Source of the DNA: Candidatus Aenigmatarchaeota archaeon
Lineage (GTDB): Archaea; Aenigmatarchaeota; Aenigmatarchaeia; Aenigmatarchaeales; Aenigmatarchaeaceae
Assembly: GCA_011773475.1 (NCBI GenBank)
Contig: WVXN01000047.1
Location: forward strand, 1,979 to 64,119
DNA length: 62,141 bases
Direction: 5' to 3'
The notes beneath the pieces are model-generated. The model did not search any database. It worked only from the letters and a program-made list of their open reading frames with translations, and was not told the origin of the DNA. Shown here piece after piece: positions 33,076 to 51,262 of the stretch. The translations under genes were made by a program, and so were the position numbers. Each line of letters begins with the position of its first letter. Positions within the stretch are counted from its first letter, which is position 1.

Positions 33076-33152
33076 TTAATAAAAAAATTATTTTTCTTCA
33101 CTAAATTTTTGACCAGCAAATTTACTAAATGGAAGTGTGTGATATACTGTTT

Positions 33153-33223
33153 TCATGATTAATCTTAAAAATAGTAATCTTTTTATGCTTGATGGGAAAT
33201 GGGTTTAAATTTTTTAGTATTCT
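33153..33223. repeat. 71-bp direct repeat, copy 1 (divergent promoter unit containing P1 module)
   Basis: 70/71 identical to 34873-34943, offset 1720 bp. Starts at a minus-strand ATG (33156-33154) and contains gggtttaaat (33201-33210). Confidence 0.9.
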
Positions 33224-33234
33224 TTATTGATAAT

Positions 33235-34107
33235 ATGAGTTTGTACGAAGAAAAACAAGCATTGCCTTTTGATGTCTATTTCGAATTCCTCCAAAAGTTG
33301 AAGGTGGAGGATGAAGAATTGCATAGATATTTGTGCGAAATGGGTTTTGTAATAAAAAGCAAAGAATACTATGACAATTCTGTCAGAAGAGCTAAATATA
33401 TAGAAAGTAATGATTATTCTAGAGAAGTCTGGGAAATTTTGGCTGAGAGGGTTAAATCTAATGATATTGTACAGATTGACACTTACTGCTCCCAGTTGAA
33501 ATTCTTGCAAAATTCCATTGTTAAAGAAGGTGTTATAATAGATTTAGGTTGTGGAAGCGGAGATACCACAGAATGGATAAGAAGAAATACTCAAGCAGAA
33601 GTGATAGGTATTGATTACTCTAGAAACATGTTAAAAGAACATAAAAAACTCCAATCTGATCTTGTCCTTGGAGACTGTGAAAGGTTGCCAATAAAAAACT
33701 GTTCGATAGATCAAGCTCTCTTAACCTGGTTCACCTCAAACACAGACAGAAGAAAAATTTTAGATGAGGTTAAGAGAGTATTGAAACCTGAAGGAGAGGT
33801 TAGGTTATCTAGCATAGGATTTGTTGTAGGAGTGTGTTCGATTAACGCTAAAACTTATGACAGCTTTCTTAGAACTTTTATGGATAAATTTTATGAAGAT
33901 CCGGAGGTTCGAAAAAAGATATGCTTGAATATGGAATTTAGATATTGTAGAGATAAGAGTATTCAAGAGGAATTGGAAAATCTTGCTAGACTTGGGTTAG
34001 AGGAAAGTTATGAATTTTCTAGATTTCCTGTAATGCCAAGAGGTTCATCAGAATATTTTGTTTTTAATGTGCCAATGACGGTTGTAGGTAAAAAACCTAA
34101 AGCTTGA
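33235..34107 (+). CDS. Class I SAM-dependent methyltransferase
   Basis: VIIDLGCGSGDTT, CERLPIKNCSIDQA, LKPEGEV. ATG 33235 lies 28 nt after the TATA. The track start 33199 lies inside the promoter repeat. Confidence 0.68.
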   Translation: MSLYEEKQALPFDVYFEFLQKLKVEDEELHRYLCEMGFVIKSKEYYDNSVRRAKYIESNDYSREVWEILAERVKSNDIVQIDTYCSQLKFLQNSIVKEGVIIDLGCGSGDTTEWIRRNTQAEVIGIDYSRNMLKEHKKLQSDLVLGDCERLPIKNCSIDQALLTWFTSNTDRRKILDEVKRVLKPEGEVRLSSIGFVVGVCSINAKTYDSFLRTFMDKFYEDPEVRKKICLNMEFRYCRDKSIQEELENLARLGLEESYEFSRFPVMPRGSSEYFVFNVPMTVVGKKPKA

Positions 34108-34124
34108 AATTCTTGAAAGAAAGA

Positions 34125-34876
34125 TTAAATAGTAAATTTAGATGTTTTTCTGTTTCTATCCTTCTTTAGTCTAATAATAATTCCCTCTTCAACGTCTCTT
34201 AGATGCCTTAATTTAATATTTCTATAAATATCTGCTACAGAATCTCCAGCTTGAGATCTCAAATCATTCTCAAATTTTCTTCCCATAGATGCTGCATCTT
34301 CACATTCTGGTCTGCATGGCAAAAATTCTTCTAGACAAAAAGAATCTGGATTTATTTTTTTGTTTTTCTTTTGATAGGATTTTACAAATTCTCTTATTCT
34401 TTCATCAGGGTCTAAAGGGTAAGAAAGATCTTTAATATATGCATTAATACAACATGTAGGATAATTCAACATAGTTCCAATTTTTTGGTGGAATGGTGGA
34501 AATATTTGTTCTAGAATATCTAAATAGTTAAGGGGTTCTAAAAAATGTAAATTATCAATCTCATCTGATTTTTCTTCAGTTGAAAATGTAAAACCTGTAT
34601 AGCCAAATGGCTTTATGACGGAAAATGATAACCTGTAAGATGGTCTAACTTTGAATCCTAAACCTAATCGTTGTGCATATTTTCTGTCTTTTTCATATTG
34701 GATTTTAGATCTAACATAAAATCGAGAAACATCTCTACTACCTGTATTTAAGAGTAAAAAATCTTCTATAAAGTGTATAGCTTTTCTTGATTTTTCTGAG
34801 ATATTAAAACTTTTAACTGCTTTTTTGGGTCAAGTATTTTATTTATGTTAATATCTTGAGAGTAGCTTATCGTCAT
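34125..34876 (-). pseudogene. Cys-rich protein gene (YPTCC...C-x4-C) split by a frameshift at A_AAA_AAG; either a pseudogene or a -1 recoding site
   Basis: ATG at 34876 opens a 36-codon frame. The long frame (34829 to 34125) has no start codon before M at 34472. The two frames join by a -1 shift on the minus-strand heptamer A AAA AAG (plus 34820-34826). Confidence 0.5.
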
Positions 34877-34943
34877 GATTAATCTTAAAAATAGTAATCT
34901 TTTTATGCTTGATGGGAAATGGGTTTAAATTTTTTAGTGTTCT
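34873..34943. repeat. 71-bp direct repeat, copy 2
   Basis: See 33153-33223. Again a minus-strand ATG (34876) at its left edge and a plus-strand gene 11 nt to its right. Confidence 0.9.
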
Positions 34944-34953
34944 ATCTAAAAGT

Positions 34954-35403
34954 ATGGAAGAAGTCAAATACCTAACCTTTGAAGAAGCAACAAAACTAAA
35001 TGGTTTCAATACTCCGTATGAAGTAAAAAAGAAAGGTTTTGAGCTTCAGCTAATAACATCTGAGTCATTTAGGGAATTACCCAAAAGAGGGAGTAGAGCC
35101 TTTATAGATGGTGATAAACGTTTGTACATAAACATTGGTGAAGAACGCTATTTTGTTTATGTCGGATCATACGATGGTGGTTTTATATTATCAAGAGAGC
35201 CTGTGGTTGGTGTTGGACTTTCTCTTAATACTATGGCAAAAGTTCTAACGAAAGAATCTTCATGGAAACATGAAAAATTTATGAAAAGATTTAAAACCAA
35301 ACTTGGGGAACATATAAAAATATTGGAAGAGGCTGGGTTGGTTGATCCTAGCTTAAAACAATTAACTCTGGAGATGGCAGAAGAAATAAAACTTAAATCC
35401 TGA
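34954..35403 (+). CDS. Hypothetical protein (149 aa)
   Basis: ATG 27 nt after TATA tttaaat (34924-34930). The last codons and stop (cttaaatccTGA) form part of a P2 module. Confidence 0.5.
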   Translation: MEEVKYLTFEEATKLNGFNTPYEVKKKGFELQLITSESFRELPKRGSRAFIDGDKRLYINIGEERYFVYVGSYDGGFILSREPVVGVGLSLNTMAKVLTKESSWKHEKFMKRFKTKLGEHIKILEEAGLVDPSLKQLTLEMAEEIKLKS

Positions 35404-35457
35404 CTTTTCTATATATTATGTATGCATTAATAAACTGAATTCTCTATATTCTTAGAT

Positions 35458-36420
35458 ATGAAGCAATTTTATAAACGAATAGGTTATGAAGGAGAACTAT
35501 CTGATATATCTCGATTGATATGTAAAGATTTTAATCTCGGAGAGTTTGTGTCAGATAGATTAGTTGAAGTTGGTTATGAAGACTTCAATTTCATCATAGA
35601 AACAACAAAAGGTAAATACTTCATCAAGATTTTCTCTAATTTCAGAAAAGATAATGACTGTCGCAGATATGTTGATATCATGTTAAAGGTTATTGAAAAG
35701 AACATATCATTCCCAGAATTATTCAAATCTGAACAGGGCTATCTTCATATAACAGATATCAACAAGATGAAAATAAGATTCGTTGTCATGCAATTCATTG
35801 ATGGTGAAAATTATTTCGAGTTAGGAGAGAAACCCACTTCTAATGAGATAAAGGAATTAGCCCGCCAAGCTGCTCTCATCAATTCAATAGACATTAAACC
35901 TCCATTTGTATATGATTCCTGGGCAATTGCAAATGTTCTGAAAGAATACGAGCAGAAGGGAGAATACCTATTACCTGAAGACGCAAAGATAGTGGAACCT
36001 TTGATAGAGGCATTCAAGAATATGAAAGTGGATGAACTTCCTCATTGTTTTGTTCATGGTGATTTTATTACAACTAATATAATGAAGGATAAGAATAACA
36101 AGCTCTGGATTATTGATTTCGCTGTTTCAAATTATTATCCTCGCATTCAAGAACTTGCTGTGATGGCCTGTAACATATTATTTGATGAGAAAAATAAAGA
36201 AAATAGCGAAAGAGACCTTAAAATAGCTTTAGATGAATACCAAAAGACTATTAAACTAACACCAAGAGAACTGGAAGTTCTATCAACTTACATAAAATTG
36301 GCACACGTGATGCATGTTCTAAGAGCAAACTTTGAAAAGGCTGTAGGAAAGGATAATAGTGAAGAGAACGAATATTGGCTTAATCAGGGCAGAATGGGAT
36401 TGAAACAAATGTTAGATTAA
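35458..36420 (+). CDS. Aminoglycoside/choline-kinase-type phosphotransferase (APH family)
   Basis: Catalytic loop HGDFITTNIM and metal-binding WIIDF. N-lobe FIIETTKGKYFIKIF with Lys. Confidence 0.78.
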   Translation: MKQFYKRIGYEGELSDISRLICKDFNLGEFVSDRLVEVGYEDFNFIIETTKGKYFIKIFSNFRKDNDCRRYVDIMLKVIEKNISFPELFKSEQGYLHITDINKMKIRFVVMQFIDGENYFELGEKPTSNEIKELARQAALINSIDIKPPFVYDSWAIANVLKEYEQKGEYLLPEDAKIVEPLIEAFKNMKVDELPHCFVHGDFITTNIMKDKNNKLWIIDFAVSNYYPRIQELAVMACNILFDEKNKENSERDLKIALDEYQKTIKLTPRELEVLSTYIKLAHVMHVLRANFEKAVGKDNSEENEYWLNQGRMGLKQMLD

Positions 36421-36484
36421 TTTAAGCTTGAAAGAAAAGGGTTTAAATTATAGTTTTAAAAGCTTAACTTTCTATAATTTTTCT

Positions 36485-36703
36485 ATGGTAGAAATAATAG
36501 GTTTGATATTTAGTATATTATGCTTTATCCTAGCTTTATTTGCATTTAAAAAACCAGAAAATATCCTTAATTCAAGATCGTGGCGAAACAGACTATGGAT
36601 AAAGATTTTCGGTGAAAGAGGGACTATTATATTTGTTAGATATATAGCTGCTCCTATTTGTATATTATTTGGAATATTTTTACTTTTATGGGCATTTTCT
36701 TGA
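36485..36703 (+). CDS. Small two-TM membrane protein (72 aa)
   Basis: ATG 36485 lies downstream of P1-like aaaagggtttaaatta (36435-36450). The track start 36428 lies inside the promoter. Confidence 0.4.
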   Translation: MVEIIGLIFSILCFILALFAFKKPENILNSRSWRNRLWIKIFGERGTIIFVRYIAAPICILFGIFLLLWAFS

Positions 36704-36763
36704 TAACCCTTAAATCCTGACTTTATGGAAGAACTTAAATATCTTAGTGTTCTTTCTTAAATT

Positions 36764-37405
36764 ATGCAATTAATACCACTTAAAAGATCTCAAAAAAGAC
36801 AATTACAAAAAATTTATGCAAATATGAAAGATGGTTCAGAGTTATGCGACCTCAATTGTCATAAATGTTGTATAGAGGGCGTGAAACTAACTTACATAGA
36901 ATTTGCTTTCTTAGTTGATAATTTAACTGAAAAAGAAATAGTAGATATCTTTAATAAACCAAGAAAACTTAGGGACGATGAAAAATATTTTCTTTGCCCA
37001 ATTTTAAATGATTCAGGACGATGCTCGAGATATGATAATAGGTCTTGGGTATGTAGAGCGTATAGAAAAGACCTAGATTTAGGTTCGTGTGTACAAAAGC
37101 CTTTAGAAGAAGTCAATAAAAAAGCAGCCAAAAAAATACTCCAACTTAATAATACGCTTGACATTCCATCTGTCTTTAAAGACTATTCTCGACCTGAAGA
37201 GTTAACAATAAGAGACTTTTTTGAGATTTTAGTGGAAGAAAATGAAGGAAGTGGGTATTTAATACCTTCTTTAACTATTTTTCCAAAAATTTCACTTATA
37301 TCTCCTTTCAATACAGATTCTGTTTCTTCATCAACCTTTGGTAATTTGCTTTTATCCTTAATATTGGCCAAAGAACTTTCACTTGTTTCAAATGCAGCCT
37401 TATAA
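36764..37405 (+). CDS. YkgJ/UPF0153-type Zn/Fe-chelating CxxCxxCC-domain protein
   Basis: CDLNCHKCC and CPILNDSGRCSRYDNRSWVCRAY. The last ~60 codons look like antisense read-through of 37183-37605, so the true C-terminus is uncertain. Confidence 0.55.
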   Translation: MQLIPLKRSQKRQLQKIYANMKDGSELCDLNCHKCCIEGVKLTYIEFAFLVDNLTEKEIVDIFNKPRKLRDDEKYFLCPILNDSGRCSRYDNRSWVCRAYRKDLDLGSCVQKPLEEVNKKAAKKILQLNNTLDIPSVFKDYSRPEELTIRDFFEILVEENEGSGYLIPSLTIFPKISLISPFNTDSVSSSTFGNLLLSLILAKELSLVSNAAL

Positions 37406-37605
37406 TCTACTCTTTGTATTTTACCTCCTCCAGCTATATAAACAACTTCAACAACAAGATTTGAATTCCCCTTTCTAAGTAAAAGCCTTTCATTTATTTC
37501 ATTACCTTTTCCAGGCCAACTACTTTCACTTAATAAATAACAACTTCTCTCTGCAAAACCTCTAGATACTGAATCTCTCACTTCTTTCCATGACTTTAAA
37601 ACCAT
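37183..37605 (-). CDS. Hypothetical protein (140 aa), last gene of a minus-strand trio
   Basis: ATG preceded by TATA tataaattt and palindrome CTATCA-n7-TGATAG (37613-37631). Its tail overlaps 36764-37405 by ~220 nt. Confidence 0.45.
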   Translation of the reverse strand: MVLKSWKEVRDSVSRGFAERSCYLLSESSWPGKGNEINERLLLRKGNSNLVVEVVYIAGGGKIQRVDYKAAFETSESSLANIKDKSKLPKVDEETESVLKGDISEIFGKIVKEGIKYPLPSFSSTKISKKSLIVNSSGRE

Positions 37606-37639
37606 TTAATCACTATCAAATTAATTGATAGAAACAAAT

Positions 37640-38446
37640 TTATACTTTAATCTCAGGATAAATGTCTTCCCATTTTAACAAGTATTTTCTTGAATGTTCA
37701 TTACCATGCAAGAAGTTCCAACAATCTCTGCATCCAACTAGAAAATCCCGAGCACGCCAATAGTATATCCTATCTGTGATATCACCCAAATGATAATAAT
37801 TTAATATATAATCTCCTTCTTCAATCAACTTAGACTCAACTTCTTTACCTTCATGCTCTTCATGCCACAACAACATGTGATATTCATGTATTATGCTTCT
37901 GAGCTTAGCAGCTAGTGTTTGTTTATAGAACTCATGCTCACATGCATTTAAATAATCTGAGAAAAGTTCTAGTGAATTTTGCAATCTTTGTTCAGTTTTC
38001 CTATCATCTATTTTAACAGTTCCTATTTTTGGATTTGCCTTCCATTCTTTCTGAAATTCACGTTCCTTCTTTTTTTGATTCGAATCTTTAGCTAATGGTC
38101 TTTCACCACTAGCCATACGCACTAACATATCTATAAGATCATACTGTATTTGCACTTTACCTTGTGGTAGATATTCTCTGAATCCAACTTCTTTAAAAAA
38201 TGAAACTTCTTTATCTAGGTAAAAAGCTCTTTTAATTGCTAATCTCAGATTTTCATCTTCTAGTTTACTTAACAAGAGTTCAATATTACCATCAATGACT
38301 TCTAGTTTTTCGAGTGTCTGTTTTTTAGTTTTGTCATAATCTTCTAACTGTTTAGATGTCATCCAATCAGCAACAGGTATTGATGCTAATTCTCTAGCAA
38401 AGTTATGATTCTTCCTAATTCTTCCAATGCTGCGTAGTTCTATCAT
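37640..38446 (-). CDS. Hypothetical His/Cys-rich protein (268 aa)
   Basis: HEYHMLLWHEEHEG and CRDCWNFLHGNEH clusters. No family recognised. Confidence 0.5.
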   Translation of the reverse strand: MIELRSIGRIRKNHNFARELASIPVADWMTSKQLEDYDKTKKQTLEKLEVIDGNIELLLSKLEDENLRLAIKRAFYLDKEVSFFKEVGFREYLPQGKVQIQYDLIDMLVRMASGERPLAKDSNQKKKEREFQKEWKANPKIGTVKIDDRKTEQRLQNSLELFSDYLNACEHEFYKQTLAAKLRSIIHEYHMLLWHEEHEGKEVESKLIEEGDYILNYYHLGDITDRIYYWRARDFLVGCRDCWNFLHGNEHSRKYLLKWEDIYPEIKV

Positions 38447-38511
38447 AAAAAGATTTTAGAATTAAAGCTTAAGCGTGTTTTGGTTAGAGGGAAATTTAAA
38501 TTCTGATATTT

Positions 38512-39570
38512 CTATTTAAGTATTCCTATTATCTTTTCTTTTGTTTTAGTGAAAAATTCTTTATCTATTGGTTCAGGTATCTTTCCCTTTCTCCCGTCTT
38601 CAAAATGTTTCAAAATCTCTAGTTCATCTTCATTGGGAAGAGGTGTGCCATGGAATGGATCAAAACCTTTTCTGAATGCATTTAAGTTTATACATGATGC
38701 TGTCTGATGAATGTGGTAATTATGTATTGTTTCAATTTTCTTTCCCCTTTCTAAAAAATATAATAATCCATCAGAGAGAGCAAGTTCTTTTTTTATAAGT
38801 TCTAATTCAAAATCCTTTACCCTCTCACCAGGATTCTTATGACTCTTGTCAAGATCTACCAAACCTATTGCTACACCACCATCAGAAGGATACAAAACAA
38901 CGTTGTGATCTCCAACATTTGTTTGAGGATATGCTAAATCAAAGAAAATACTTCCCCAACACAGATTAGATCTTTCTAATGAACCATACCAAAACCCTAT
39001 CCAGTTGCCTATTTTGCTTGTGAATCTTTCTTTGATACTTGATATCTTATCTTTATTCCTAAGATTCTTTCTAAAGGCTTCTTCAATTATTTCTAACATT
39101 TTTATATGAATTATCTCTAGTCTATTATCACCTCTGACTATTTGCACTGGACAACAAACAGGTTCACCTTCAAACGAAATTCCATATCTAAAATAGGAAA
39201 CTGGCTCTAAGGCAGATTCAACTCCGTTTTTTTTACCAAAATCACTCATAACTTGGCTTGCATTTAATTCACTTAAACAAGAAGATTCCTTCATGCAGCC
39301 AAAAGGCACGCCTTCTTCTTCATATGCTCTGTTAGTTGGTATTATTCCTTTGAGTTTGTAGACCTCACCACCTGTTTCTATTAATGCAGTTCTTTCTCCA
39401 GAAGGAACACCAACAATACTAGTTACTACATCGCTTTTCTTGAGCGGTGTTCTAAACAAAGGAGGAATTTCATTATTATTGTAACTAACAGTGTCTCCAG
39501 AAGTTCCCTCCAAATATGTTTTTCCTGTTCCTCCTTCGAAAATGAATATGTCTTCAATTGTCCTTACCAT
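38512..39570 (-). CDS. Hypothetical protein, possibly protein-kinase-like fold (352 aa)
   Basis: EVYKLKG (beta3-Lys-like), GDHNVVLY (catalytic-loop-like), GLVDLDKS (DFG-like). Very tentative. Promoter carries the P3 core (39583-39600). Confidence 0.5.
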   Translation of the reverse strand: MVRTIEDIFIFEGGTGKTYLEGTSGDTVSYNNNEIPPLFRTPLKKSDVVTSIVGVPSGERTALIETGGEVYKLKGIIPTNRAYEEEGVPFGCMKESSCLSELNASQVMSDFGKKNGVESALEPVSYFRYGISFEGEPVCCPVQIVRGDNRLEIIHIKMLEIIEEAFRKNLRNKDKISSIKERFTSKIGNWIGFWYGSLERSNLCWGSIFFDLAYPQTNVGDHNVVLYPSDGGVAIGLVDLDKSHKNPGERVKDFELELIKKELALSDGLLYFLERGKKIETIHNYHIHQTASCINLNAFRKGFDPFHGTPLPNEDELEILKHFEDGRKGKIPEPIDKEFFTKTKEKIIGILK

Positions 39571-39658
39571 AGTTTAATAATTAAAAGTAATCTTTAAGTG
39601 TTTTGTTGGTTTTGGTAAAAATTGAAGGACTTAAATTTTTAATCTTCTTATCTTAAAT

Positions 39659-39943: not shown

Positions 39944-39977
39944 AGGTTTAAATTATTTATTATTCTTCTTCAATTAA

Positions 39978-40298: not shown

Positions 40299-40353
40299 TG
40301 TTTGTAGTGTTTTATATTCTCTTGACTATTTATCTATTTTTACTTTGCTCAGT

Positions 40354-41428: not shown

Positions 41429-41440
41429 CTTTTTATTAAT

Positions 41441-44108: not shown

Positions 44109-44120
44109 ACATTTTAGATT

Positions 44121-44738
44121 ATGATTAAAACGAGAAGCATTGAAGAATTAAAGAAGATGACAGAAAAAGAGTTATTGAAAATTTCTAATATTTCGAAACG
44201 TGAGGTATCATTTCTGCAATGGGTCTTAAATACTAATTATGTTCCTGCTATTACAAACCATGATAAAAGCATAGAAGAAATGGAAAATGATACTGGACTC
44301 GATAAAAAGGCTATAAAAATTTGTAGATCTGCTCTAATGAAAGCTGGAGCAGAGGAAAAACTTAAATCTGGAAAAAGAATAGTTCTCCAAGAAATCAAAA
44401 AAGTAGTGTATACACTAACAAATGATCCATCATTATATAAAAAAAATGGTAGAATGAGAAGGGAAGCAAAAAGACAAAAAATTTGGGAAATTAGCTTTAT
44501 AAAAATTGGTAAAAATATAATTAGATACTTGCAAGAAGCAAAAGATGATTGGAAACCAAAAACCTATCTTGCAAACAAAGTTAAAACTAAGTCTAGACGA
44601 AATAAAGAATACTTAAGTGTACTTGTAGAAGCTGATCTTATGGAAGAAAAAGAAAACCTCTTTAATGGAAATAAAAGATGGCAATACAGAACTTCTGAAA
44701 AAGGTGCAGAACTTCTTAAATCAGTTGGAAAACTATAA
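44121..44738 (+). CDS. Hypothetical protein with probable winged-helix domain(s) (205 aa)
   Basis: Basic helical protein. The C-terminal YLSVLVEADLMEE...WQYRTSEKGAELL looks wHTH-like. Confidence 0.48.
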   Translation: MIKTRSIEELKKMTEKELLKISNISKREVSFLQWVLNTNYVPAITNHDKSIEEMENDTGLDKKAIKICRSALMKAGAEEKLKSGKRIVLQEIKKVVYTLTNDPSLYKKNGRMRREAKRQKIWEISFIKIGKNIIRYLQEAKDDWKPKTYLANKVKTKSRRNKEYLSVLVEADLMEEKENLFNGNKRWQYRTSEKGAELLKSVGKL

Positions 44739-44805
44739 ATAAAAATTTAAGTTTTTGTGGGTATGGATAGAGATATTTAAGTTTTAAACATTTTTGTGTT
44801 TATAA

Positions 44806-44835
44806 GAAATGGGTTTAAATTTTTTAGTGTTCTAT
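44806..44835 (+). promoter_or_regulatory. Promoter module P1 copy
   Basis: gaaatgggtttaaattttttagtgttctat is 30/30 identical to 34916-34945. ATG 44844 follows. Confidence 0.7.
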
Positions 44836-44843
44836 AGAAGGAT

Positions 44844-45506
44844 ATGGTAAAAACTAGGCCTGTTTATGCTTTGGAGCTTGATTTATCAGATTTAACAAAA
44901 AGAAAATTTAGTCTAACTCCAACCCAATCCATAGTTAGTAAACCTTCAGAACTTTATGAGAAATTCGTATTTCCAAAAGATTTTGAGTGTGGAGATAAAC
45001 ATAGTAAATGGACAGATATTCCAAGACCATCTAAAGAAAATATAAGATATATGGTTTCAGCTGTTCAAATTGACCCTAACACTTTGAATGATGCTGTTTA
45101 TTTTGAAAGAACCAGAGATGTAATTTTACAAGAGAAAGCTGTTAGACAAGCACATTTAGAGATTGATAGAATTAGTGTTAATGTATGTAAATTCCTTGAT
45201 TCTCCGACCAATCATATGAGAGTAGAGTATTATATCCCACGACAAGAAGGTGTTGTCAGAGCAATGGATATTAAAGGTAATATATTCAAAAGAAGATTAA
45301 ATATACAAGATGTTCTAAAAATAAAAATGATAGAAAAGGTTAAAGGGTCTGTTAAGACACCAGCTCCTATACTCTCCTTTGAAACTGAAAGTGATCCATT
45401 AACTTACTTTGCTGCATTTAATTGGGATTTTAAAGATGAAGATGAACGTTTCAGTGTTGAAGTTGCACATTGGTTAAAAAAATTCACAGAAGAAAATAAT
45501 CTATAG
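44844..45506 (+). CDS. Hypothetical protein (220 aa)
   Basis: Open frame at canonical spacing from the P1 TATA. Confidence 0.5.
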   Translation: MVKTRPVYALELDLSDLTKRKFSLTPTQSIVSKPSELYEKFVFPKDFECGDKHSKWTDIPRPSKENIRYMVSAVQIDPNTLNDAVYFERTRDVILQEKAVRQAHLEIDRISVNVCKFLDSPTNHMRVEYYIPRQEGVVRAMDIKGNIFKRRLNIQDVLKIKMIEKVKGSVKTPAPILSFETESDPLTYFAAFNWDFKDEDERFSVEVAHWLKKFTEENNL

Positions 45507-45564
45507 TTAAACTTCTTTAAAGAAAAAATAACTCTTAAATCTTGTTTATTCTATATTCTTAGAT

Positions 45565-45678
45565 ATGATTTGGAACATTAAATTAAAAGATATAACTACA
45601 AAAAGGCTGACAATTGCAATAGTCATTTTATTTTTACTTTTCATTATTATGCGTATCTTATATGAATATATAATATAA
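45565..45678 (+). CDS. Possible 37-aa single-TM peptide (not in ORF track)
   Basis: MIWNIKLKDITTKRLTIAIVILFLLFIIMRILYEYII. ATG sits in the conserved P2 context tctatattcttagatATG (45550-45567). Confidence 0.3.
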   Translation: MIWNIKLKDITTKRLTIAIVILFLLFIIMRILYEYII

Positions 45679-45750
45679 CATTTTTATTCTGACTTTTCTT
45701 AACCAAAGGGTTTAAATGTTTTTGTGTTATATTTTTGTTTATCTGATTAA

Positions 45751-46011
45751 ATGAAAAAGTCTAAAACTGTTTCAACTGCTATAATTGATCTAGTAGAAAA
45801 TATAAGAAAAGAGTGTAAAAATCCAGACACTCTACTTTCAAGAGTCAATCTCCTGATAAGTGGTGAATCCATAGAAGCATCTTACATTGTTGATGAAAAA
45901 TGTGATGGATGTGAACATTATAGATTAGGACGTACAAGAGGACGTATAACTCATGATACATATTCTACTTGCAATATTATTCTGAAGGCCTATAATTCTC
46001 TTAAAACTTAA
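45751..46011 (+). CDS. Hypothetical small Cys-containing protein (86 aa)
   Basis: P1-like aaagggtttaaatg (45705-45718) upstream. The stop TAA is the first triplet of a P2 module. Confidence 0.4.
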   Translation: MKKSKTVSTAIIDLVENIRKECKNPDTLLSRVNLLISGESIEASYIVDEKCDGCEHYRLGRTRGRITHDTYSTCNIILKAYNSLKT

Positions 46012-46043
46012 CCCTTAAATCCTCTTTTTTCTATATTTTAGAT
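46009..46043 (+). promoter_or_regulatory. Promoter/junction module P2 copy
   Basis: TAAcccttaaatcct...ctatattttagat, then ATG 46044. Matches 49738-49772, 47026-47048, 36704-36720 and 42167-42185. Confidence 0.65.
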
Positions 46044-46244
46044 ATGAAAAAGAAATACTATTGGGTTATTGGAATTTTAATAATAGCAATTTTGATTATC
46101 TTTTTAGTTTGGTATTTATCTGAAGATTGTGTAAAAGGATATGGTGAACTTAAAGAGGGTGAATATTGTTGTTTTGGTTCATCCGAAAAAACTGTAAAAT
46201 CAGGTGCAACCGTCTGTGAACCATTTGGCGTTATTATAGATTGA
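46044..46244 (+). CDS. Small membrane-anchored/secreted Cys-rich peptide (66 aa), family with 49773-50036
   Basis: MKKKYYWVIGILIIAILIIF anchor, then a Cys-rich part with a CCFG motif. Confidence 0.45.
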   Translation: MKKKYYWVIGILIIAILIIFLVWYLSEDCVKGYGELKEGEYCCFGSSEKTVKSGATVCEPFGVIID

Positions 46245-46425
46245 CGATTTCTATGACACTCAAATAATTCCTAAAGCCAGACCTGTTAAGGATATTTGAG
46301 ATGGGAAACATACTGCATGATTTTGTTGTGGTCGTGCTGAAGAGTGAAAAGACGCCTGAGGTTGAGGTTTTGAAATTGGAGTTTGTGTTTAAAATAATAA
46401 ATAATTTCTAATCTATAGTTTTAGT

Positions 46426-47028
46426 ATGAAAAAATTATTGTTGACTTCTGAAGGGTTATCGAACCAAAACATCAGAAATGAATTTCTAGATTTGTTGGAA
46501 AAGCCTGCCTCTGAAACCAGAATTGTTATTATAACAACAGGCTCTAGGACAGAAGAAGAACTGAAATATGTCGAGGAATCAAAGGAAGAACTAATAGAAA
46601 CTGGGATTAAAAGAGAGAACATCAAAACTTTGGATTTGAAGCATAAAATAATTTACGGGGATGTGGAGAGATTTGATGCCATCTATTTCTGTGGTGGCAA
46701 CACCTTCTTTATACTACACAAGGTAAGGGAAAACGGCTTTGATAAGGTAATAGAAAGGTTCGTTAATGAGGGAAAGCTGTATATCGGAGTCAGTGCAGGC
46801 AGCATAATAATGTCTCCTTCAATAGTCACTTCATCTGACGAGAACAATATTGGCATAAAGGATTTGACAGGATTGAAGTTGGTTGATGTTTTGATAGTGC
46901 CCCATTACAATGAGGATAAAAAATCAATTATTGAAGAATATAGGAAAAAATTATCATATGAAATAGTTTCACTGACAGATAATCAGGCTTTAGTTGTAAA
47001 AAATGGGAAAATGGAAATTGTTGAATAA
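46426..47028 (+). CDS. pepE: Peptidase E (S51 family dipeptidase)
   Basis: IYFCGGNTFFILHKVRENGF...LYIGVSAGSII aligns with E. coli PepE IVGGGNTFQLL...LYIGWSAGA (Ser nucleophile). GC visibly higher than neighbours. Confidence 0.8.
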   Translation: MKKLLLTSEGLSNQNIRNEFLDLLEKPASETRIVIITTGSRTEEELKYVEESKEELIETGIKRENIKTLDLKHKIIYGDVERFDAIYFCGGNTFFILHKVRENGFDKVIERFVNEGKLYIGVSAGSIIMSPSIVTSSDENNIGIKDLTGLKLVDVLIVPHYNEDKKSIIEEYRKKLSYEIVSLTDNQALVVKNGKMEIVE

Positions 47029-47166
47029 CCCTTAAATCCTGATTATTGTGTACTCTTTTTTTTCCTAAGGTTCTTTCTCATCAGTATAACTAAAACAGTA
47101 AACAATTTAAGTTTAAAATCCTTGACAGAAAATAGGTTTAAATGTTTTAGGATTTGTTTCTTTATT

Positions 47167-47682
47167 ATGAAAATCTACCAATCTGTTCAAGATGTTAGAA
47201 GATTTGACTACAATAAACTAGTTAAACTTATAATATTGGAAGCATTAGAAAATAAAGAGTTAACTCTTTCTGGAATTCGGGAATACGCCAAAGACCAGCA
47301 TAGAAAAGGTTTAACTGAACGGGGTCTAACTTCTCATCTAACTAGACTTGGAGATATTTCTTTTATTGAAATAAGAGAAAATGAAGAAGTTCATTATAGA
47401 TTATTAGAACGCGGTAGAAATGCCTTAAAAGAACATAAAAAATACGGAATAGAACCGAGTGGAATGGGTTTAAGAAATTTCATTCGATGGGAAATTGTAG
47501 AAAACGGTAGTGGAACAACAACGAATATTATTGATAATTATAGTTTTATGTTCGGATTAGCTAAAGTGGGTAGAAGAAGGTCTAATGAAAAACATAAAAT
47601 AATTGATGAGATTAACTCAATGATGAAAACTCCAGAATTTGAATTTAATGGAGGGGAGTTAGATTTTACGGCACCAATATAG
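47167..47682 (+). CDS. Winged-helix DNA-binding protein (171 aa)
   Basis: LTLSGIREYAKDQHRKGLTERGLTSHLTRLGDISFIEIRENEEVHYRLLERG. ATG ~27 nt after P1-like aaataggtttaaatg (47130-47144). Confidence 0.5.
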   Translation: MKIYQSVQDVRRFDYNKLVKLIILEALENKELTLSGIREYAKDQHRKGLTERGLTSHLTRLGDISFIEIRENEEVHYRLLERGRNALKEHKKYGIEPSGMGLRNFIRWEIVENGSGTTTNIIDNYSFMFGLAKVGRRRSNEKHKIIDEINSMMKTPEFEFNGGELDFTAPI

Positions 47683-47720
47683 AAAAATCAGGATTTAAAT
47701 TTTCCTTACATATTAATTTT

Positions 47721-48038
47721 ATGTTTTCAGTTAGTAAAATCGAAAAAGGAATACGTATTGAAAATCTAGCATTAACTCTAAAATTTATTATATATTGTAA
47801 AAAACGTCAATTTAAAGCTAAAAATTTAGCAAACCAATCAGGATTAGGTGGTCGTCTTTTCGGTGGAAGTCTCCGTACTTTGGTAAGAGATGGTTATTTA
47901 ACAGTAGAAAGAAGTAGTCGAAGTAGTCGTATTTCAAGATACAATGTTAAAAATTTTGAAGAATTAGAAAGATATTATGAAGAAATTAAAAGTAAACTAC
48001 CTGAAGAATTTGTAGAATCTGTTTTAGAAGATGTCTAA
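47721..48038 (+). CDS. Small winged-helix-like protein (105 aa)
   Basis: KNLANQSGLGGRLFGGSLRTLVRDGYLTVE. Promoter atcaggatttaaat (47687-47700) is P2 in inverted orientation. Confidence 0.45.
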   Translation: MFSVSKIEKGIRIENLALTLKFIIYCKKRQFKAKNLANQSGLGGRLFGGSLRTLVRDGYLTVERSSRSSRISRYNVKNFEELERYYEEIKSKLPEEFVESVLEDV

Positions 48039-48169
48039 AACTTTCATTTTCTTTTTATTTTAAACAATCTAATTCTCTATATGATCGACTTCAAGAGGCT
48101 CATTGATTCCCATATATTCCGCAAATCCAGACCAAAGGGAATTTAAAGTCTTCTTCACATTTGAAGAAT

Positions 48170-48532
48170 ATGGGACTTAAGAACTTGCCTCCTATAATAA
48201 GTGATAAAGCATTTTATCTGATCTTTGGAGATATTTTTGAGAATTTTGAATCATTTATCGAAACAATAAATATACTAATGAAAAGAAAATACTCTTTTTC
48301 AGAGGCATTGAAAGACCAATTTGAATTCGAATCCTATCTTCATCAGAATTTTTGGAGAGTAGGTGGAGCGCCAACTCGCATTGATGATTATTTGGAGTTG
48401 GCTGACATATATATTTTTGATAACTTTGTCAATCGTCATATGAAATGTAAAGAAAATGTTCCAATTCTTATGCCTTTAATTCCTAAATATCAAACAGAAA
48501 TTGATGATTTTGTTTCTAAGAAATGGGTTTAA
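48170..48532 (+). CDS. Hypothetical protein (120 aa)
   Basis: ATG 25 nt after atttaaag (48141-48148). The last codons aag aaa tgg gtt TAA are themselves a P1 module for the next gene. Confidence 0.45.
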   Translation: MGLKNLPPIISDKAFYLIFGDIFENFESFIETINILMKRKYSFSEALKDQFEFESYLHQNFWRVGGAPTRIDDYLELADIYIFDNFVNRHMKCKENVPILMPLIPKYQTEIDDFVSKKWV

Positions 48533-48557
48533 ATGTTTTAGTCTTTAAGTCCTTAAT

Positions 48558-49319
48558 ATGGTTTCAACAAAAAGAATTTATAGAATGGCAAAGCAAAAAC
48601 TGCCAGCTGTGATGAAAGAAGCATGCGAAATATTTTCTGTTGATAATTTTGATTCAGAAATTATATGGGACGAGACCCCTAGAGAAACGCCTTTTCATTA
48701 TGGTTATGATAGTAGAAAAATTGAATTTTCTCCACAGGGTTTTTTGAGGGTGTATCCTTTAATGAAAAAAACTCTTTCTCAAAACCTTAGAGATTTTACT
48801 CCAGAAATGTTTATAATGTCTTATCTTGGTCATGAAGCTTCTCATAAAGTGCAAGATAAAAAATCAAAATATGAAATAAGTATGGAAATGATGGAACTTA
48901 TAGTTGCTGATGATTTACATAATGACAAGGAAGCAAGAGTTATACGTCATGTCTGTAGTGGTATAATGGAAGGTTTTGCTGCTTATGCTGAAGATATTAT
49001 ATTTGAAAGATTTGGTTTACATGATCTGAAAACTGAAAATAATAAGATTTTTGAATTAACATTTACAATGGCTACAATTAAAAATTTAAATGTAGCATCT
49101 GAAGATATACCAAAAATTTTCAGTGAAGAGCCGGAAAGAGCAAAAGAATTCATTTGTTTTGTAGAAAAATTACAAAAAAGGGTTTATGAAAAAAGAGGGT
49201 TAAAAACTTTTAGAGAACATGCAGAAATATGGAGACCTTCACAAATAAGTTATGAAATTGCTAAAACTTTGTTAGAAAACTCTTTAAATTTCTCAACGGC
49301 TCGTTATTTAGGTGTTTAA
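48558..49319 (+). CDS. Hypothetical protein with HExxH motif (possible Zn metalloprotease)
   Basis: YLGHEASHKVQD. 253 aa, no signal peptide. Confidence 0.5.
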   Translation: MVSTKRIYRMAKQKLPAVMKEACEIFSVDNFDSEIIWDETPRETPFHYGYDSRKIEFSPQGFLRVYPLMKKTLSQNLRDFTPEMFIMSYLGHEASHKVQDKKSKYEISMEMMELIVADDLHNDKEARVIRHVCSGIMEGFAAYAEDIIFERFGLHDLKTENNKIFELTFTMATIKNLNVASEDIPKIFSEEPERAKEFICFVEKLQKRVYEKRGLKTFREHAEIWRPSQISYEIAKTLLENSLNFSTARYLGV

Positions 49320-49380
49320 CTGTTGATTTGATGGGAAATGGGTTTAAATAATTTTGTGTTCTATTAGAATATGTGATAAA

Positions 49381-49740
49381 ATGGGTAGTTCAAAAACCGA
49401 GGAACAATCATGGCATTCATGTAAAAGTTCAATCGGTTATTTACCAATTAAACTACATTTCTCACCTATTGAAGAAGGTGGCGAACCAACTCAATTAGAT
49501 CACAAGCCAGTCTATGTCGCTTTTAGTTGTAAAAGAAAAGAAGTCTTAGATTCAGGGGTTTATAACACAGCTATCATTCCTGTAAGCGATTCCCCTCTTG
49601 AAGTTGCACGACTTTTCAATCTATCAGATATGCTGAATAGGGTGCAGTTTGATGCAGAAAGCTTACAAAGATTAGAAAACAAAATTAGAAGGGGACTCGT
49701 AATTTGTAATTTTTGTAAATTTTACGAACAAAAGAAATAA
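49381..49740 (+). CDS. Hypothetical protein (119 aa)
   Basis: ATG 32 nt after the P1 TATA. ttgatgggaaatgggtttaaat (49328-49349) is 22/22 identical to 33189-33210. Confidence 0.45.
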   Translation: MGSSKTEEQSWHSCKSSIGYLPIKLHFSPIEEGGEPTQLDHKPVYVAFSCKRKEVLDSGVYNTAIIPVSDSPLEVARLFNLSDMLNRVQFDAESLQRLENKIRRGLVICNFCKFYEQKK

Positions 49741-49772
49741 CCCTTAAATCGTGATTATTGCATATTTTAGAT
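49738..49772 (+). promoter_or_regulatory. Promoter/junction module P2 copy
   Basis: TAAcccttaaatcgtgattattgcatattttagat, then ATG 49773. The upstream stop codon is part of the module. Confidence 0.65.
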
Positions 49773-50036
49773 ATGAAAAAGAAATACTATTGGATTATTG
49801 GGATTGTAATAATTGTCTTAATTTTGTTTTTCTATCCAAAAAACTGTGGAAACTGGGGAACAGCTATTGACCCAAATTTAACTTATAAAGAATGCACTTG
49901 CTTTGGTATAAAATACAGTGAACCTTTACTTGGTGGAGGTTATATTGATTGTTTTGGAATACCAATTTCATATTCTTGTTATAAACAATTCCCAAGTGAA
50001 ACTGGACTACAAAGAATAGATATTCCTTGTGATTAA
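49773..50036 (+). CDS. Small membrane-anchored/secreted Cys-rich peptide (87 aa), paralogue of 46044-46244
   Basis: MKKKYYWIIGIVIIVLILFF anchor. CTCFG and DCFGIP motifs, 8 Cys. The track start 49758 lies inside the promoter. Confidence 0.45.
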   Translation: MKKKYYWIIGIVIIVLILFFYPKNCGNWGTAIDPNLTYKECTCFGIKYSEPLLGGGYIDCFGIPISYSCYKQFPSETGLQRIDIPCD

Positions 50037-50038
50037 GC

Positions 50039-50497
50039 ATGTCTGAAGAACTGAAAATAAGAATTCACGATTACCAGAAAATAGAAGAGAATCTTAAAAG
50101 ATTGGGAGCCAGATTTACTGAGGAGATCAATGTTGTTGATACCTATTTTAAACAGCCAGCTGGTGAGGTTCTTAAAATAACTGAGGATGATAGGGGAAAC
50201 TTCTTAGTTAATTTAAAATTAAAAGAAGGTAAGTTTCAGATCTTGAAGTATGAGAAGATTGATGATGTTGATGGTTTGAAAAAAGAATTAAATGATAAGT
50301 TTGGTGTGAAGTGTGTTTTGAAAAAGAAGAGAAGGTTTTTTGACTTTGAAGATTTTGTTATTAATATTAATTTGATTGAGGATGTTGGAGAGTTTCTCAT
50401 TGTTGAGGGAGAGAAAGTTTCTAGTGAGGTTATTAGTAGATTAGGTATTGAGAATCCTGAATATATTAGGGTTAGTTTTGATGAGTTGAAGAAGTGA
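50039..50497 (+). CDS. CYTH-domain protein (CyaB-type adenylyl cyclase / triphosphatase family)
   Basis: VVDTYF, LKITED, KKKRRFFDF.DFVININLIEDVGEFLIVEGE fit the CYTH barrel pattern. The N-terminal ExExK motif is only partly conserved (EELKIRI). Confidence 0.65.
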   Translation: MSEELKIRIHDYQKIEENLKRLGARFTEEINVVDTYFKQPAGEVLKITEDDRGNFLVNLKLKEGKFQILKYEKIDDVDGLKKELNDKFGVKCVLKKKRRFFDFEDFVININLIEDVGEFLIVEGEKVSSEVISRLGIENPEYIRVSFDELKK

Positions 50498-50562
50498 TTT
50501 TAAATAATTTCATTATATCAATCCACACACCATTATAAATAATCCTATATAATATTAATTTC

Positions 50563-50841
50563 ATGAACATCAAAAAATTGGATATAATAAAATCTGATGA
50601 ACGCGGAACAATTTTTAACTGTGAAAAAATAAACTATCTAACAAGAAAAAAACACACCATTAGCTCAGACCACACTCATGCTGAAGGTGAGGAAATTTTC
50701 TTGGTTGAAGGAAAAATGGTATTAACAGTAGGAGATCAAACCAAAGAGGTTGAAGCTCCTATAAAAATAGACATTCCTCCTAATGTATACCACAAAATAA
50801 CTGCTCTTACAGATATAAGGATATTGTATTTCTACAAATAA
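50563..50841 (+). CDS. Small cupin-domain protein (92 aa)
   Basis: HTHAEGEEIFLVEGKM...PPNVYHKI resembles the two cupin motifs. Confidence 0.5.
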   Translation: MNIKKLDIIKSDERGTIFNCEKINYLTRKKHTISSDHTHAEGEEIFLVEGKMVLTVGDQTKEVEAPIKIDIPPNVYHKITALTDIRILYFYK

Positions 50842-50863
50842 TAGTTTATACTCCAGTCAAATC

Positions 50864-51148
50864 TTATATTTGGACACCTTCAATTTCTGAATGATTACTT
50901 AAAAATTGTTCTCCCATACGACGAATTGTTTCTCCAGCAAAATATCTTTTAACATGAGCTTCTCCCTCTTCTGTTTGTTTCTTAGCCCAACGACGTGGCA
51001 TATGAACTTTAAGTCTATCAAGACTTTTACTAACTTCTAATCTTGCTTTTTTTTCTTCGTATCCTTGTTGTCTAAGAAATTCTATAAATTCTTTTATACT
51101 TACTCCAGTTTTTCTTAAATCTTTGTTATCAATACATTGTTTTAGCAA
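50864..51148 (-). CDS. Hypothetical protein; the frame stays open 28 codons upstream (to 51232) without an ATG/GTG/TTG
   Basis: The upstream extension IESELESIVKGTPYGFSETDVKLVTY looks protein-like. An ATA at 51226 sits 29 nt after minus-strand TATA cttaaattt, so this may be a lost or non-canonical start. Confidence 0.42.
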   Translation of the reverse strand: MLKQCIDNKDLRKTGVSIKEFIEFLRQQGYEEKKARLEVSKSLDRLKVHMPRRWAKKQTEEGEAHVKRYFAGETIRRMGEQFLSNHSEIEGVQI

Positions 51149-51262
51149 ATAAGTTACTAATTTTACATCAGTTTCAGAAAATCCATAAGGTGTTCCTTTT
51201 ACTATAGATTCTAATTCGCTTTCTATAAGTAATTAATTGATAGAAACAAATTTAAGTCTTTA

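Follow-up and report, generated by a model that had tools for sequence, protein, structure and literature searches.

An 18-kb island of short, mostly orphan genes is embedded in the mevalonate gene cluster of an uncultured DPANN archaeon, Candidatus Aenigmarchaeota, and was analysed within a 62-kb stretch of its DNA (hereafter the window). The island holds 33 open reading frames (ORFs), and ~24-27 of them carry a promoter from one of four families of long conserved sequence modules (P1, P2, P3 and P4), slightly below the estimate of a first-pass annotation, which had counted ~35 genes and credited almost every one with a module. With moderate confidence, the locus is read here as a flexible island of self-promoted, leaderless cassettes with clade-specific promoter and gene-end modules, in which turnover takes place at module junctions without a recognisable recombinase.

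Under this reading the segment, with its ~33 self-contained expression units, would be a hotspot of gene turnover within the mevalonate cluster. Each unit would consist of a short ORF and its own core promoter (a purine-rich B recognition element (BRE), a TATA box and a conserved 23-nt stretch to the start codon), and the promoters would fall into the few clade-specific families P1, P2, P3 and P4. The core of P2, TTAAATCCTGATTTTT, would lie on or beside the upstream stop codon, close all three frames and provide an oligo-T run, while the P2 TATA would either fire the gene 29 nt downstream or be followed after 23-25 nt by that gene's own TATA. Module sequences would be maintained by function across the clade and also copied within the genome. 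Blocks of a gene and its promoter would come and go, be exchanged for others or change order, with their junctions on or beside modules; the likeliest route is recombination between copies of a module, homologous or by microhomology, with selection then favouring intact units. Module enrichment, promoter geometry, conservation across species, variability of the island and breakpoints at modules are observed directly below; the recombination mechanism, the promoter activity and the terminator activity in this scheme are what we infer from them.

Module families and promoter geometry

Chance expectations were taken from 100 dinucleotide-preserving shuffles of the window, allowing <=3 mismatches per 23-mer. 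A P1 23-mer (GGGTTTAAATnTTTTAGTGTTCT) and a P2 23-mer (CTTAAATCCTGATTTTTCTATAT) each had six matches against 0.01 expected, and the P3 core 23-mer had three against 0.03; all of these matches lie at 33.1-49.8 kb, and none occurs in the 44 kb outside the island. At looser thresholds all eight P1 matches and all seven matches to P2a, the putative gene-end form of P2, fall within the island, which makes up 29% of the window. P1, P2 and P3, together with a fourth family that had escaped the first-pass annotation (P4, an exact 24-mer at 37619-37642 and 51231-51254), number 3-13 copies each, all within 33.1-52.5 kb. Both sequence reading and a repeat search recovered P1-P3 at every position given for them previously. 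No module precedes any of the ~50 window genes outside the island, consistent with the earlier statement that promoters there share the TATA core only, and that core is common across the window (75 of 110 TTTAAAT heptamers are outside the island).

Several copies are alike over much longer stretches. A 71-nt repeat (33153-33223 and 34873-34943) has 99% identity between unrelated flanking sequences, a 65-nt repeat (41385 and 44065) has 82% identity, with the P3 pair identical at 38 of 39 positions, and a 76-nt repeat (46009 and 49738) has 88% identity and extends into the first 14 codons. The intergenic spacers of the island have a median of ~55 nt and are mostly module sequence. In a comparison with miniature inverted-repeat transposable elements (MITEs) and insertion sequences, the repeat search of the window found no terminal inverted repeats around the modules, copies were confined to the island and no transposase was found. 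When 12 junctions were folded as single-stranded DNA, their minimum free energies ranged from -0.2 to -5 kcal/mol, with z-scores between -1.2 and +1.9; compared with shuffled sequences they have, if anything, less structure. The only symmetry in the junctions is a 5+5 nt palindrome, which in P2a forms a 12-bp core (AAATC-CT-GATTT) with a non-palindromic 2-bp centre.

The TATA element (TTTAAAT, TTAAATC or TTAAAGA) of P1, P2 and P3 starts 29-31 nt before the start codon, with a purine-rich stretch upstream and a conserved spacer downstream. A TATA hexamer at -33 to -27 was found for 21 of the 33 island genes and 12 of the 50 genes outside, and a Shine-Dalgarno motif for one of the 33 and ten of the 50. 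In archaeal leaderless transcripts the TATA is centred 26-27 nt ahead of the first ORF base. The modules are putative archaeal BRE/TATA promoters, and their fixed TATA-to-ATG distance of 29-31 nt implies leaderless mRNAs.

The P2 core, collected from the window and five relatives, is TTAAATCCTGATT(T). The centre of P2a lies <=18 nt from a gene 3' end in 19 of 26 intergenic copies, and the next start codon lies anywhere from 23 to several hundred nt away; P2a is tied more closely to the upstream stop codon than to the following start codon, a feature missed by the first-pass annotation. It is found in both orientations and between convergent genes (43082 in the window; 11533 in contig L004, 9487 and 11081 in L009 and 2626 in L027, all from relatives). 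The extended module, ATAACCCTTAAATCCTGA, contains a stop codon in each frame, all three of which are used by upstream ORFs, and any ORF that enters it ends in the next 20 nt. After it comes a T5 run, oligo-T runs being an archaeal termination signal, and past the core one finds either an ATG at +27 to +29, a second TATA at +23 to +25 (the gene's own P1 or P3) or nothing. P2 would thus act also as a gene-end element with predicted terminator activity. The earlier observation that modules absorb the stop codon of the preceding gene was reproduced for TAA at 46009, 47026 and 49738, for TGA at 35401, 42164 and 44070, and for the KKWV-TAA end at 48530-48532; at 36704, listed with these, the ORF in fact stops at TGA 36701 and the module TAA at 36704 is a second, tandem stop. 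Three sites carry vestigial starts (module-ATG-TAA at 43107, module-ATG-TGA at 49371 and likewise at L009 11109), which suggests that the module outlived the gene it once served.

Conservation across relatives and turnover at the locus

P1 and P2 sequences also occur in contigs of other Aenigmarchaeota, namely L008, L009, L012, L016, L017, L027, L029 and L035 (GC 0.29-0.37). A scan of the contig collection with the P1 pattern returned the AT-rich contigs L008, L009, L010, L012, L016 and L017, in which DNA matches to the window consist of modules only, the one exception being a short L016 match overlapping the initial codons of the peptide genes 46044/49773. L027, L029 and L035, reached through protein homologues (GC 0.33-0.37), contain P1, P2, P3 and composites of P2a plus TATA, and the first two share YkgJ gene DNA with the window besides the modules. 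Modules in the relatives' contigs cluster among short, mostly unannotated accessory genes. The occurrence of the same modules in contigs otherwise without DNA similarity argues for conserved functional elements and not merely recent copies. In an alignment of 21 P1 copies from nine genomes, GGTTTAAAT-n-TTTTAgT-n-TTCT is kept and variation is limited to the n positions, a signature of selection on function. The modules are clade-wide, putatively functional and conserved promoter and gene-end types that are not private to the island, which the first-pass annotation had missed. The module-rich region of L009 also includes a TATA-binding protein (TBP) gene (10517-11053), located between a P2a and an orphan P2 with a vestigial ATG-TGA.

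Conservation by function does not account for all of the similarity. Five P1 copies of the window share GAAATGGG, which in its exact form is absent from the P1 copies of other genomes (the nearest are GAAATGAGG in L016 and AGATGGG in L017), and the near-identical pairs of 71 nt, 24 nt and 39 nt are not explicable by convergence, suggesting that modules have also been copied within the genome. Proteins downstream of repeated modules have no blastp similarity to one another. Gene duplication was considered as the origin of the module similarity and rejected, there being no paralogy among the island proteins except for the N-terminal 14 codons of 46044/49773.

Proteins encoded in the flanks are named Candidatus Aenigmarchaeota in NCBI. 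The chromosomal setting of the island is defined by the following features:

32107..33075, + strand: GHMP-kinase gene, last of the mevalonate operon (mevalonate kinase in NCBI); left flank and conserved synteny anchor.
51263..51799, - strand: Nudix (IDI-like) gene; ancestral member of the mevalonate cluster embedded in the island, not a cassette.
51873..52426, + strand: last cassette, a P1-variant promoter and a 172-aa orphan gene; replaces the thiolase/HMG-CoA synthase position of relatives.
52521..52790, + strand: truncated HMG-CoA reductase (Pfam match); scar at the true right edge of the rearranged region.
52833..54548, + strand: aIF5B/IF-2 gene; right flank and conserved synteny anchor.

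The first-pass annotation had ended the island at 51262; synteny extends the variable region to ~52520, between the kinase gene (ending at 33075) and aIF5B (starting at 52833). The kinase-to-aIF5B interval, 19.7 kb long in the window, measures 5 kb in L004/L018 and 3.7-7 kb in L019, L021 and L023. The last three, in which the kinase is 63-75% identical, hold IDI, thiolase, HMG-CoA synthase and HMG-CoA reductase in differing subsets and have no P1/P2 modules at the locus. The flanks of L004/L018 have 85-88% DNA identity to the window (88% for the left-flank kinase protein, compared with 63-75% in many Aenigmarchaeota), and L018 and fragments of the window organism come from one metagenome assembly. 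In L004/L018 the first part of the interval contains a P1 module, a YkgJ-like gene ending in P2a and an M23 peptidase behind a P3 promoter, followed by a type-2 IDI, two small genes and HMG-CoA synthase. The DNA homology between the window and L004 stops at 33076 on the left side, the modules of L004 occur in its short island only, and the YkgJ-like gene is the sole island gene in common. The island is therefore strain-specific and lies inside a normally contiguous mevalonate pathway cluster. Synteny with relatives, proposed in the first-pass annotation as a check, finds the island absent or much shorter and gene order not invariant, and the arrangement, a site fixed by its syntenic core flanks whose content differs among close relatives, is that of a flexible island.

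The island has displaced core mevalonate genes, namely thiolase, HMG-CoA synthase and most of HMG-CoA reductase, which is surprising for a region assumed to be essential. Only the C-terminal 68 aa of the reductase are left, with 79% identity to residues 400-467 of the L019 reductase, and the Nudix gene has 66% identity to the second Nudix gene of L023, at an equivalent relative position. The thiolase, HMG-CoA synthase, full-length reductase and type-2 IDI of the relatives' locus are found nowhere in the 62-kb window; either the genome carries these genes at another locus or the organism has an incomplete pathway.

Turnover is visible at the level of single genes and of strains. The YkgJ-like gene has four different neighbourhoods in four genomes and retains a P1-type promoter in each. 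In L004 the TATA side of this promoter matches the first P1 of the window, its ATG side matches the YkgJ promoter of the window, and the whole looks like a hybrid of the two; derivation of L004 by a simple deletion between these two promoters was considered and fits in part, the sequences upstream of P1 being different. The P3 promoter at 39568..39612 is identical at 36 of 38 nt in L004, where it drives the unrelated M23 peptidase gene. Among relatives, near-identical strains (99.7-99.9% identity) break at modules: L035 and L036 are 99.7% identical over 13.6 kb and unrelated from an inverted P2a copy onward, and six contigs (L029/L030 and L031-L034) are identical through YkgJ to the TTTAAA containing its stop and then have two unrelated continuations. 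L027 and L029 share the same blocks in a different order, with 94% and 79.5% identity and with edges at the TATA/P2 of terminal promoters. Cassettes between directly repeated modules are found in the window (33153/34873) and in L009 (9428/10287, ~85 nt).

The YkgJ-like ORF of the window (36764-37405) is 46 codons longer than its L004 orthologue, has lost the stop codon and P2a and runs 223 nt antisense into the convergent gene 37183-37605, with a deletion junction at ~37246.

Competing explanations and known systems

A number of observations weigh against the flexible cassette island or limit its reach. Module density was measured within the 62 kb of the window, and the fragments of the window organism among the contigs (L001-L003, L007 and L013) are 100% identical to the window, leaving strain breakpoints from relatives only. 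The spacers are almost all module, so neutral breakpoints would also land there and their position is no proof of module-mediated recombination. With 25-35 nt at 75-90% identity, the modules are short substrates for homologous recombination, and the window/L004 breakpoint at 37246 falls in the coding end of the YkgJ-like gene, 20 nt before P2a and not on it. The predicted promoter, leaderless-start and terminator roles are based on geometry and general archaeal knowledge. Lastly, the conserved AAATC-CT-GATTT core suggests sequence-specific protein binding, which turnover of cassettes does not require. The hypervariable cassette island proposed in the first-pass annotation is accordingly upheld for its variability and for the strain breaks at modules, while its qualifier 'recombination-driven' stays conditional, no recombinase or site structure having been recognised.

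The palindromic core is the centre of the main, though unlikely, alternative, in which the modules are also operators. A clade-specific dimeric DNA-binding protein would recognise the P2a core AAATC-CT-GATTT (candidate binding sequence AAATCCTGATTT), perhaps with a second factor on the P1 box TTTTAGTnTTCT downstream of the TATA, and the island genes would be collectively switched, silenced or insulated. The factor, and not recombination, would keep the modules similar, a reading that is compatible with the variability of the island. The co-regulated regulon of the first-pass annotation gains from this 12-bp dyad, which is conserved across genomes and lies over the TATA or 23-25 nt upstream of a second TATA, typical positions for a repressor or activator. 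In addition, the information content of P2a in genomes with a GC of 0.29-0.37 is highest at the G/C-containing CCTGA, P2a is present in both orientations, and P1 conservation reaches -23 to -12, where core archaeal promoters usually have no signal. The island also encodes at least three likely winged-helix proteins (44121, 47167 and 47721), with P2a in the upstream region of each. However, the islands have no conserved candidate for such a factor: when all island proteins were compared by tblastn with the loci of relatives, only the YkgJ-like protein, a kinase-like protein and one peptide proved to be shared. Gene functions are heterogeneous and turn over between strains, P2a at convergent gene ends has nothing to regulate, and operator conservation leaves unexplained both the 71-nt repeat at 99% identity and the copies with vestigial start codons.

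Strain-level breakpoints exactly on P2a or TTTAAA, cassettes bounded by directly repeated modules, and vestigial module-ATG-stop remnants that suggest precise removal of an ORF would all suit a site-specific, integron-like platform, with P2a or TTTAAA as the crossover of a recombinase encoded elsewhere and with circular gene-plus-promoter cassettes that would be cut out and inserted there; the short inverted arms of P2a around a non-palindromic 2-bp centre are of the same kind. This is nevertheless very unlikely. Searches of 30 island proteins (E<=0.01) found no integrase, transposase, nuclease or replication protein above threshold and no PF00589 or other recombinase, and none is annotated in the flanks of relatives. 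Junctions are without hairpins and the inverted arms are only 5 bp, the position of the breakpoint relative to P2a differs between L035 and L036, one window/L004 breakpoint is outside any module, and cassettes occur in both orientations with their own promoters. A related idea, quite unlikely as well, is that the P2 junction (ATAACCC-TTAAATCCTGATTTTT-CTATAT..ATG) is the working part of an archaeal gene-capture platform, a ~35-nt 'universal adaptor' and crossover point. It may supply an incoming ORF with stops in all frames and a terminator, and the gene that follows with a promoter, and crossover may proceed through an unrecognised recombinase or module-guided homologous recombination; if true, the P2 adaptor would be a DPANN analogue of the integron built on promoters and not on attC sites.

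The many small orphans, the winged-helix proteins, the uniform strong promoters and the co-directional run at 41.4-50.8 kb could be expected of an integrated Aenigmarchaeota plasmid or virus with element-specific promoters, of which the island would be a remnant, and the gene at 50864-51229 has a Rep3_N WH1 match, although below threshold (20.4 bits against a cut-off of 22.4). A remnant of this kind is highly improbable, and the degraded integrated element of the first-pass annotation is not retained. None of 20 orphans matched PHROGs, and no integrase, capsid, packaging or replication gene was found above threshold. There are no tRNA or att-like terminal repeats at the island borders, and the GC (~30% across the whole window) is the same in the island as in its flanks. 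The P1 and P3 patterns and two island proteins had no match in 2.9 million viral contigs, and modules in relatives flank metabolic or ordinary genes (PALP, TBP and a DNA glycosylase). Two P2a matches in viral contigs (L005 and L006) were dismissed as chance, being inside coding sequence of higher-GC phage. With the profile searches, the single-strand folding and PHROGs all negative, the earlier report of no integrase, transposase, attC-like site or viral hallmark gene stands. PADLOC matched none of the ten largest orphans, leaving a reading as a defence island unsupported, NCBIfam gave no match for the same number of largest orphans, and PDB sequence searches of the large orphans returned nothing significant.

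It is scarcely credible that the modules are an ordinary promoter consensus of an AT-rich genome, or the island an assembly chimera. The TTTAAA core is common, with most TTTAAAT heptamers outside the island, and a P1-like promoter precedes a PALP enzyme gene in L027; against this, the ~50 genes outside the island are free of modules, the L004 modules are restricted to its short island, and independent contigs (L003, L007 and L013) confirm the island interior and the right junction at 100% identity.

Three classes of known system resemble the island in part. Integrons and clusters of attC sites lacking integron-integrases (CALINs), including archaeal ones (Ghaly et al. 2022, PMC9668308), share with it arrays of short unrelated genes, a repeated element at junctions that overlaps gene ends, rapid turnover of cassettes among strains and long co-directional runs. 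The island differs in having neither an IntI integrase (which CALINs may also lack) nor an attI site, in junctions that are 25-35 nt unstructured AT-rich promoters, whereas attC sites are 55-140 nt and fold as single strands, and in cassettes that are self-promoted and in both orientations instead of served by a common Pc promoter. An integrase, attC structure and promoterless cassettes were thus all missing here, attC structure being judged by single-strand folding of the 12 junctions and not with a dedicated covariance model.

The putative mobile promoters of Matus-Garcia, Nijveen and van Passel 2012, as summarised in PMC3575422, are highly similar upstream sequences before non-homologous genes of one genome. 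By the measure given in that summary (>=80% over >=50 nt, non-paralogous genes), two island pairs qualify (71 nt at 99% and 65 nt at 82%), with the reservation that the definition used -150 to -50 and the match here spans -80 to -1. Going by the same summary, the survey covered mainly dispersed pairs in bacteria, while the island copies are concentrated in one island, form families of up to 13 members, take in the core promoter as far as the start codon, double as putative gene-end elements and are conserved across species.

Flexible genomic islands are exemplified by the hypervariable islands of marine picocyanobacteria and haloarchaea. The present island has in common with them a fixed hotspot between syntenic core genes, strain-specific orphans, small secreted or membrane peptides and native base composition; it differs in lacking a border tRNA or integrase and in a hotspot that lies within an essential lipid-precursor cluster and has partly deleted it. 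To our knowledge, flexible islands have not been described as having almost all of their genes punctuated by uniform promoter/terminator elements. Promoter-bearing blocks before unrelated genes in variable loci are also known from the upstream homology box of Borrelia cp32 erp/mlp and from the Correia elements of Neisseria, but these are bacterial sigma-70 plasmid promoters or MITEs with terminal inverted repeats, and neither such repeats nor target duplications are seen here. None of the three classes, mobile promoters, integrons/CALINs or flexible islands, combines island-confined promoter/stop families with conservation across species, and literature searches found no described equivalent in DPANN.

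The modules themselves resemble the canonical BRE/TATA leaderless promoters of archaeal primary-transcriptome studies (PMC4983044, PMC5316973) in the purine-rich BRE directly before an 8-bp TATA, in a TATA centred ~26-27 nt upstream of the start and in a start codon that would coincide with the predicted transcription start site. They differ in that conservation in the island spans -38 to -1 and falls into discrete families, while other promoters of the window share the TATA core alone.

DPANN have tiny genomes and are host-dependent, and the locus presents accessory genes packaged in predicted leaderless mini-units behind a few standard modules, with turnover between strains at these modules. 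If confirmed as promoters and terminators, the modules would be the first candidate regulatory parts for Aenigmarchaeota and a sequence tag for the flexible genome of the clade in metagenomes; if they also guide recombination, they would represent a recombinase-free or new-recombinase route to cassette exchange.

Gene content, module copies and other features of the window

The gene content is as heterogeneous as first described. Pfam matches were obtained for two methyltransferases, an APH, a CxxCxxCC (YkgJ-like) protein, a peptidase S51 and a cupin, with CYTH below the cut-off, and ~20 of the 30 island proteins scanned had no Pfam match. Of the likely small winged-helix proteins, 44121 has a sub-threshold Pfam HTH_45 match and 47167 and 47721 were judged from their sequence; the WH1 match of 50864 is weak. 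The minus-strand orphan at 38512-39570 (352 aa) is part of a small family with only eight members known, all of metagenomic origin; the structure predicted for it (pLDDT 76) resembles YdiU/SelO and VRK1 with a TM-score of 0.3-0.37, and the model weakly suggests a protein-kinase-like fold and not a recombinase. Eight island genes are on the minus strand.

The ORF array and the individual module copies, with promoter and gene-end roles as predicted, are as follows:

33235..51229, both strands: array of ~32 ORFs, median 152 aa, 87% coding, mostly monocistronic.
33153..33223, P1 rightward and P3-like leftward: 71-nt bidirectional promoter block, copy 1; the leftward start opens a 22-codon vestigial ORF only.
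34873..34943, both directions: 71-nt block, copy 2; drives the 149-aa gene 34954-35403 (right) and the frameshifted gene 34125-34876 (left).
33196..33223, + strand: P1 promoter (GAAATGGG-TTTAAAT-TTTTTAGTATTCT) of methyltransferase gene 33235-34107, TATA to ATG 31 nt.
44806..44833, + strand: P1 promoter of orphan gene 44844-45506, identical at 28 of 28 nt to 34916-34943, TATA to ATG 30 nt.
48520..48547, + strand: P1 promoter of HExxH gene 48558-49319; its TATA box gives the KKWV-TAA stop of 48170-48532.
49335..49362, + strand: P1 promoter with a vestigial ATG-TGA at the canonical start (49371); the real ATG is at 49381.
45704..45730, + strand: P1-variant promoter of gene 45751-46011.
47130..47157, + strand: P1-variant promoter of winged-helix gene 47167-47682.
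36703..36766, + strand: composite junction; P2a (ATAACCCTTAAATCCTGA) ending gene 36485-36703 and, 25 nt on, the P1-type TATA of the YkgJ-like gene 36764-37405.
35386..35421, + strand: P2 module; the TGA of its CCTGA is the stop of gene 34954-35403, and the next real gene starts at 35458.
42164..42201, + strand: P2 module; stop TGA of 41441-42166, and a GTG 29 nt past the TATA starts methyltransferase gene 42199-42777.
43075..43112, + strand: orphan P2 module with vestigial ATG-TAA, without a downstream gene and facing the 3' end of convergent gene 43105-43446.
45528..45567, + strand: P2 promoter of the 37-aa transmembrane peptide gene 45565-45678.
46008..46046, + strand: P2 module; ends 45751-46011 with its TAA and serves as promoter of the Cys-rich transmembrane peptide gene 46044-46244.
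47025..47057, + strand: P2a gene-end element; its TAA is the stop of peptidase S51 gene 46426-47028, and a T8 run follows.
47672..47703, - strand: inverted P2 copy immediately past the stop of 47167-47682; 47721-48038 (+) is driven from its palindromic TATA box.
38488..38515, - strand: degenerate P2a-like element (ATCAGAATTTAAATTTCC) between minus-strand genes 38512-39570 and 37640-38446.
49737..49775, + strand: P2 module; ends 49381-49740 with its TAA and serves as promoter of gene 49773-50036.
41385..41443, + strand: P3 composite of a P2a-like half (ATGATTTTTGTATAT) and promoter AAAAATACTTAAAGATTAGTTTT; gene 41441-42166.
44065..44123, + strand: P3 composite; the TGA of AATCCTGATTTTT is the stop of 43587-44072, and it is the promoter of winged-helix gene 44121-44738.
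39568..39612, - strand: P3 promoter of the kinase-like orphan gene 38512-39570.
37619..37642, - strand: P4 exact 24-mer, overlapping the stop of 37640-38446 and upstream of gene 37183-37605.
51231..51254, - strand: P4 second copy, between the Nudix gene and minus-strand gene 50864-51229.

The two copies of the 71-nt block are direct repeats around a 1.7-kb two-gene unit. An ATG at 33199 falls within P1, the true start of the methyltransferase gene being 33235. At 35386..35421 a vestigial ATG at the canonical +29 opens a 6-codon ORF, and the orphan P2 at 43075..43112 has a counterpart of the same arrangement at L009 11081, with ATG-TGA. Following the P2a at 47025..47057, the next promoter (the P1 variant) is 100 nt further. 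The 88% similarity between 49737..49775 and the 46008 copy runs on over the 14 first codons, and the Logan contig L003 ends here. A P2a and a second TATA 23-25 nt apart, as in the composite at 36703..36766, are also found in L027, L029 and L035, and the genes downstream of the two P4 copies are unrelated.

Further observations concern single genes and RNAs. The minus-strand gene 34125-34876, a ~250-codon ORF, has a frameshift at an A-run near 34810 that places its first 19 codons in another frame; the frameshift is also present in the independent contig L013, and the gene is either a pseudogene or contains a slippery site. The sole island gene with a Shine-Dalgarno-like leader (TAAGGAGAGATTGTT-ATG) is a 43-aa highly acidic ORF (42833-42964, minus strand), and near-identical leaders precede genes at L027 11816 and L029 496. 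L008, a 1.2-kb contig, has a P2 module and gene start at both ends in inverted orientation (154 minus, 1103 plus), representing either a genuine inverted duplication or a hairpin created during assembly. A C/D-box sRNA as an explanation of the CUGA in P2a was rejected, with no C box at the proper distance and no Rfam match.

Rfam matches in the window are to rRNA, RNase P RNA and tRNA only. The 3' end of an archaeal 23S rRNA (1-511) is followed by RNase P RNA (1159-1425), and the 5S rRNA gene (61929-62044) is unlinked, 61 kb from the 23S gene. A tRNA of 113 nt at 61216-61328, found by Rfam and not reported by ARAGORN, presumably contains an intron. Outside the island, an inverted repeat of 221 nt with 71% complementarity (5150-5370 and 17529-17749) joins two paralogous ~160-aa genes 12 kb apart (4964-5437, plus strand; 17462-17968, minus strand). 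Two homologues of the mevalonate-operon kinase (P0080 and P0096, 66% identity) are labelled Candidatus Nealsonbacteria and Patescibacteria in NCBI, which for archaeal kinase homologues suggests misbinned contigs or cross-domain transfer. In L019, the polyprenyl synthase gene at 3794-6253 (819 aa) contains an intein with a LAGLIDADG endonuclease domain.

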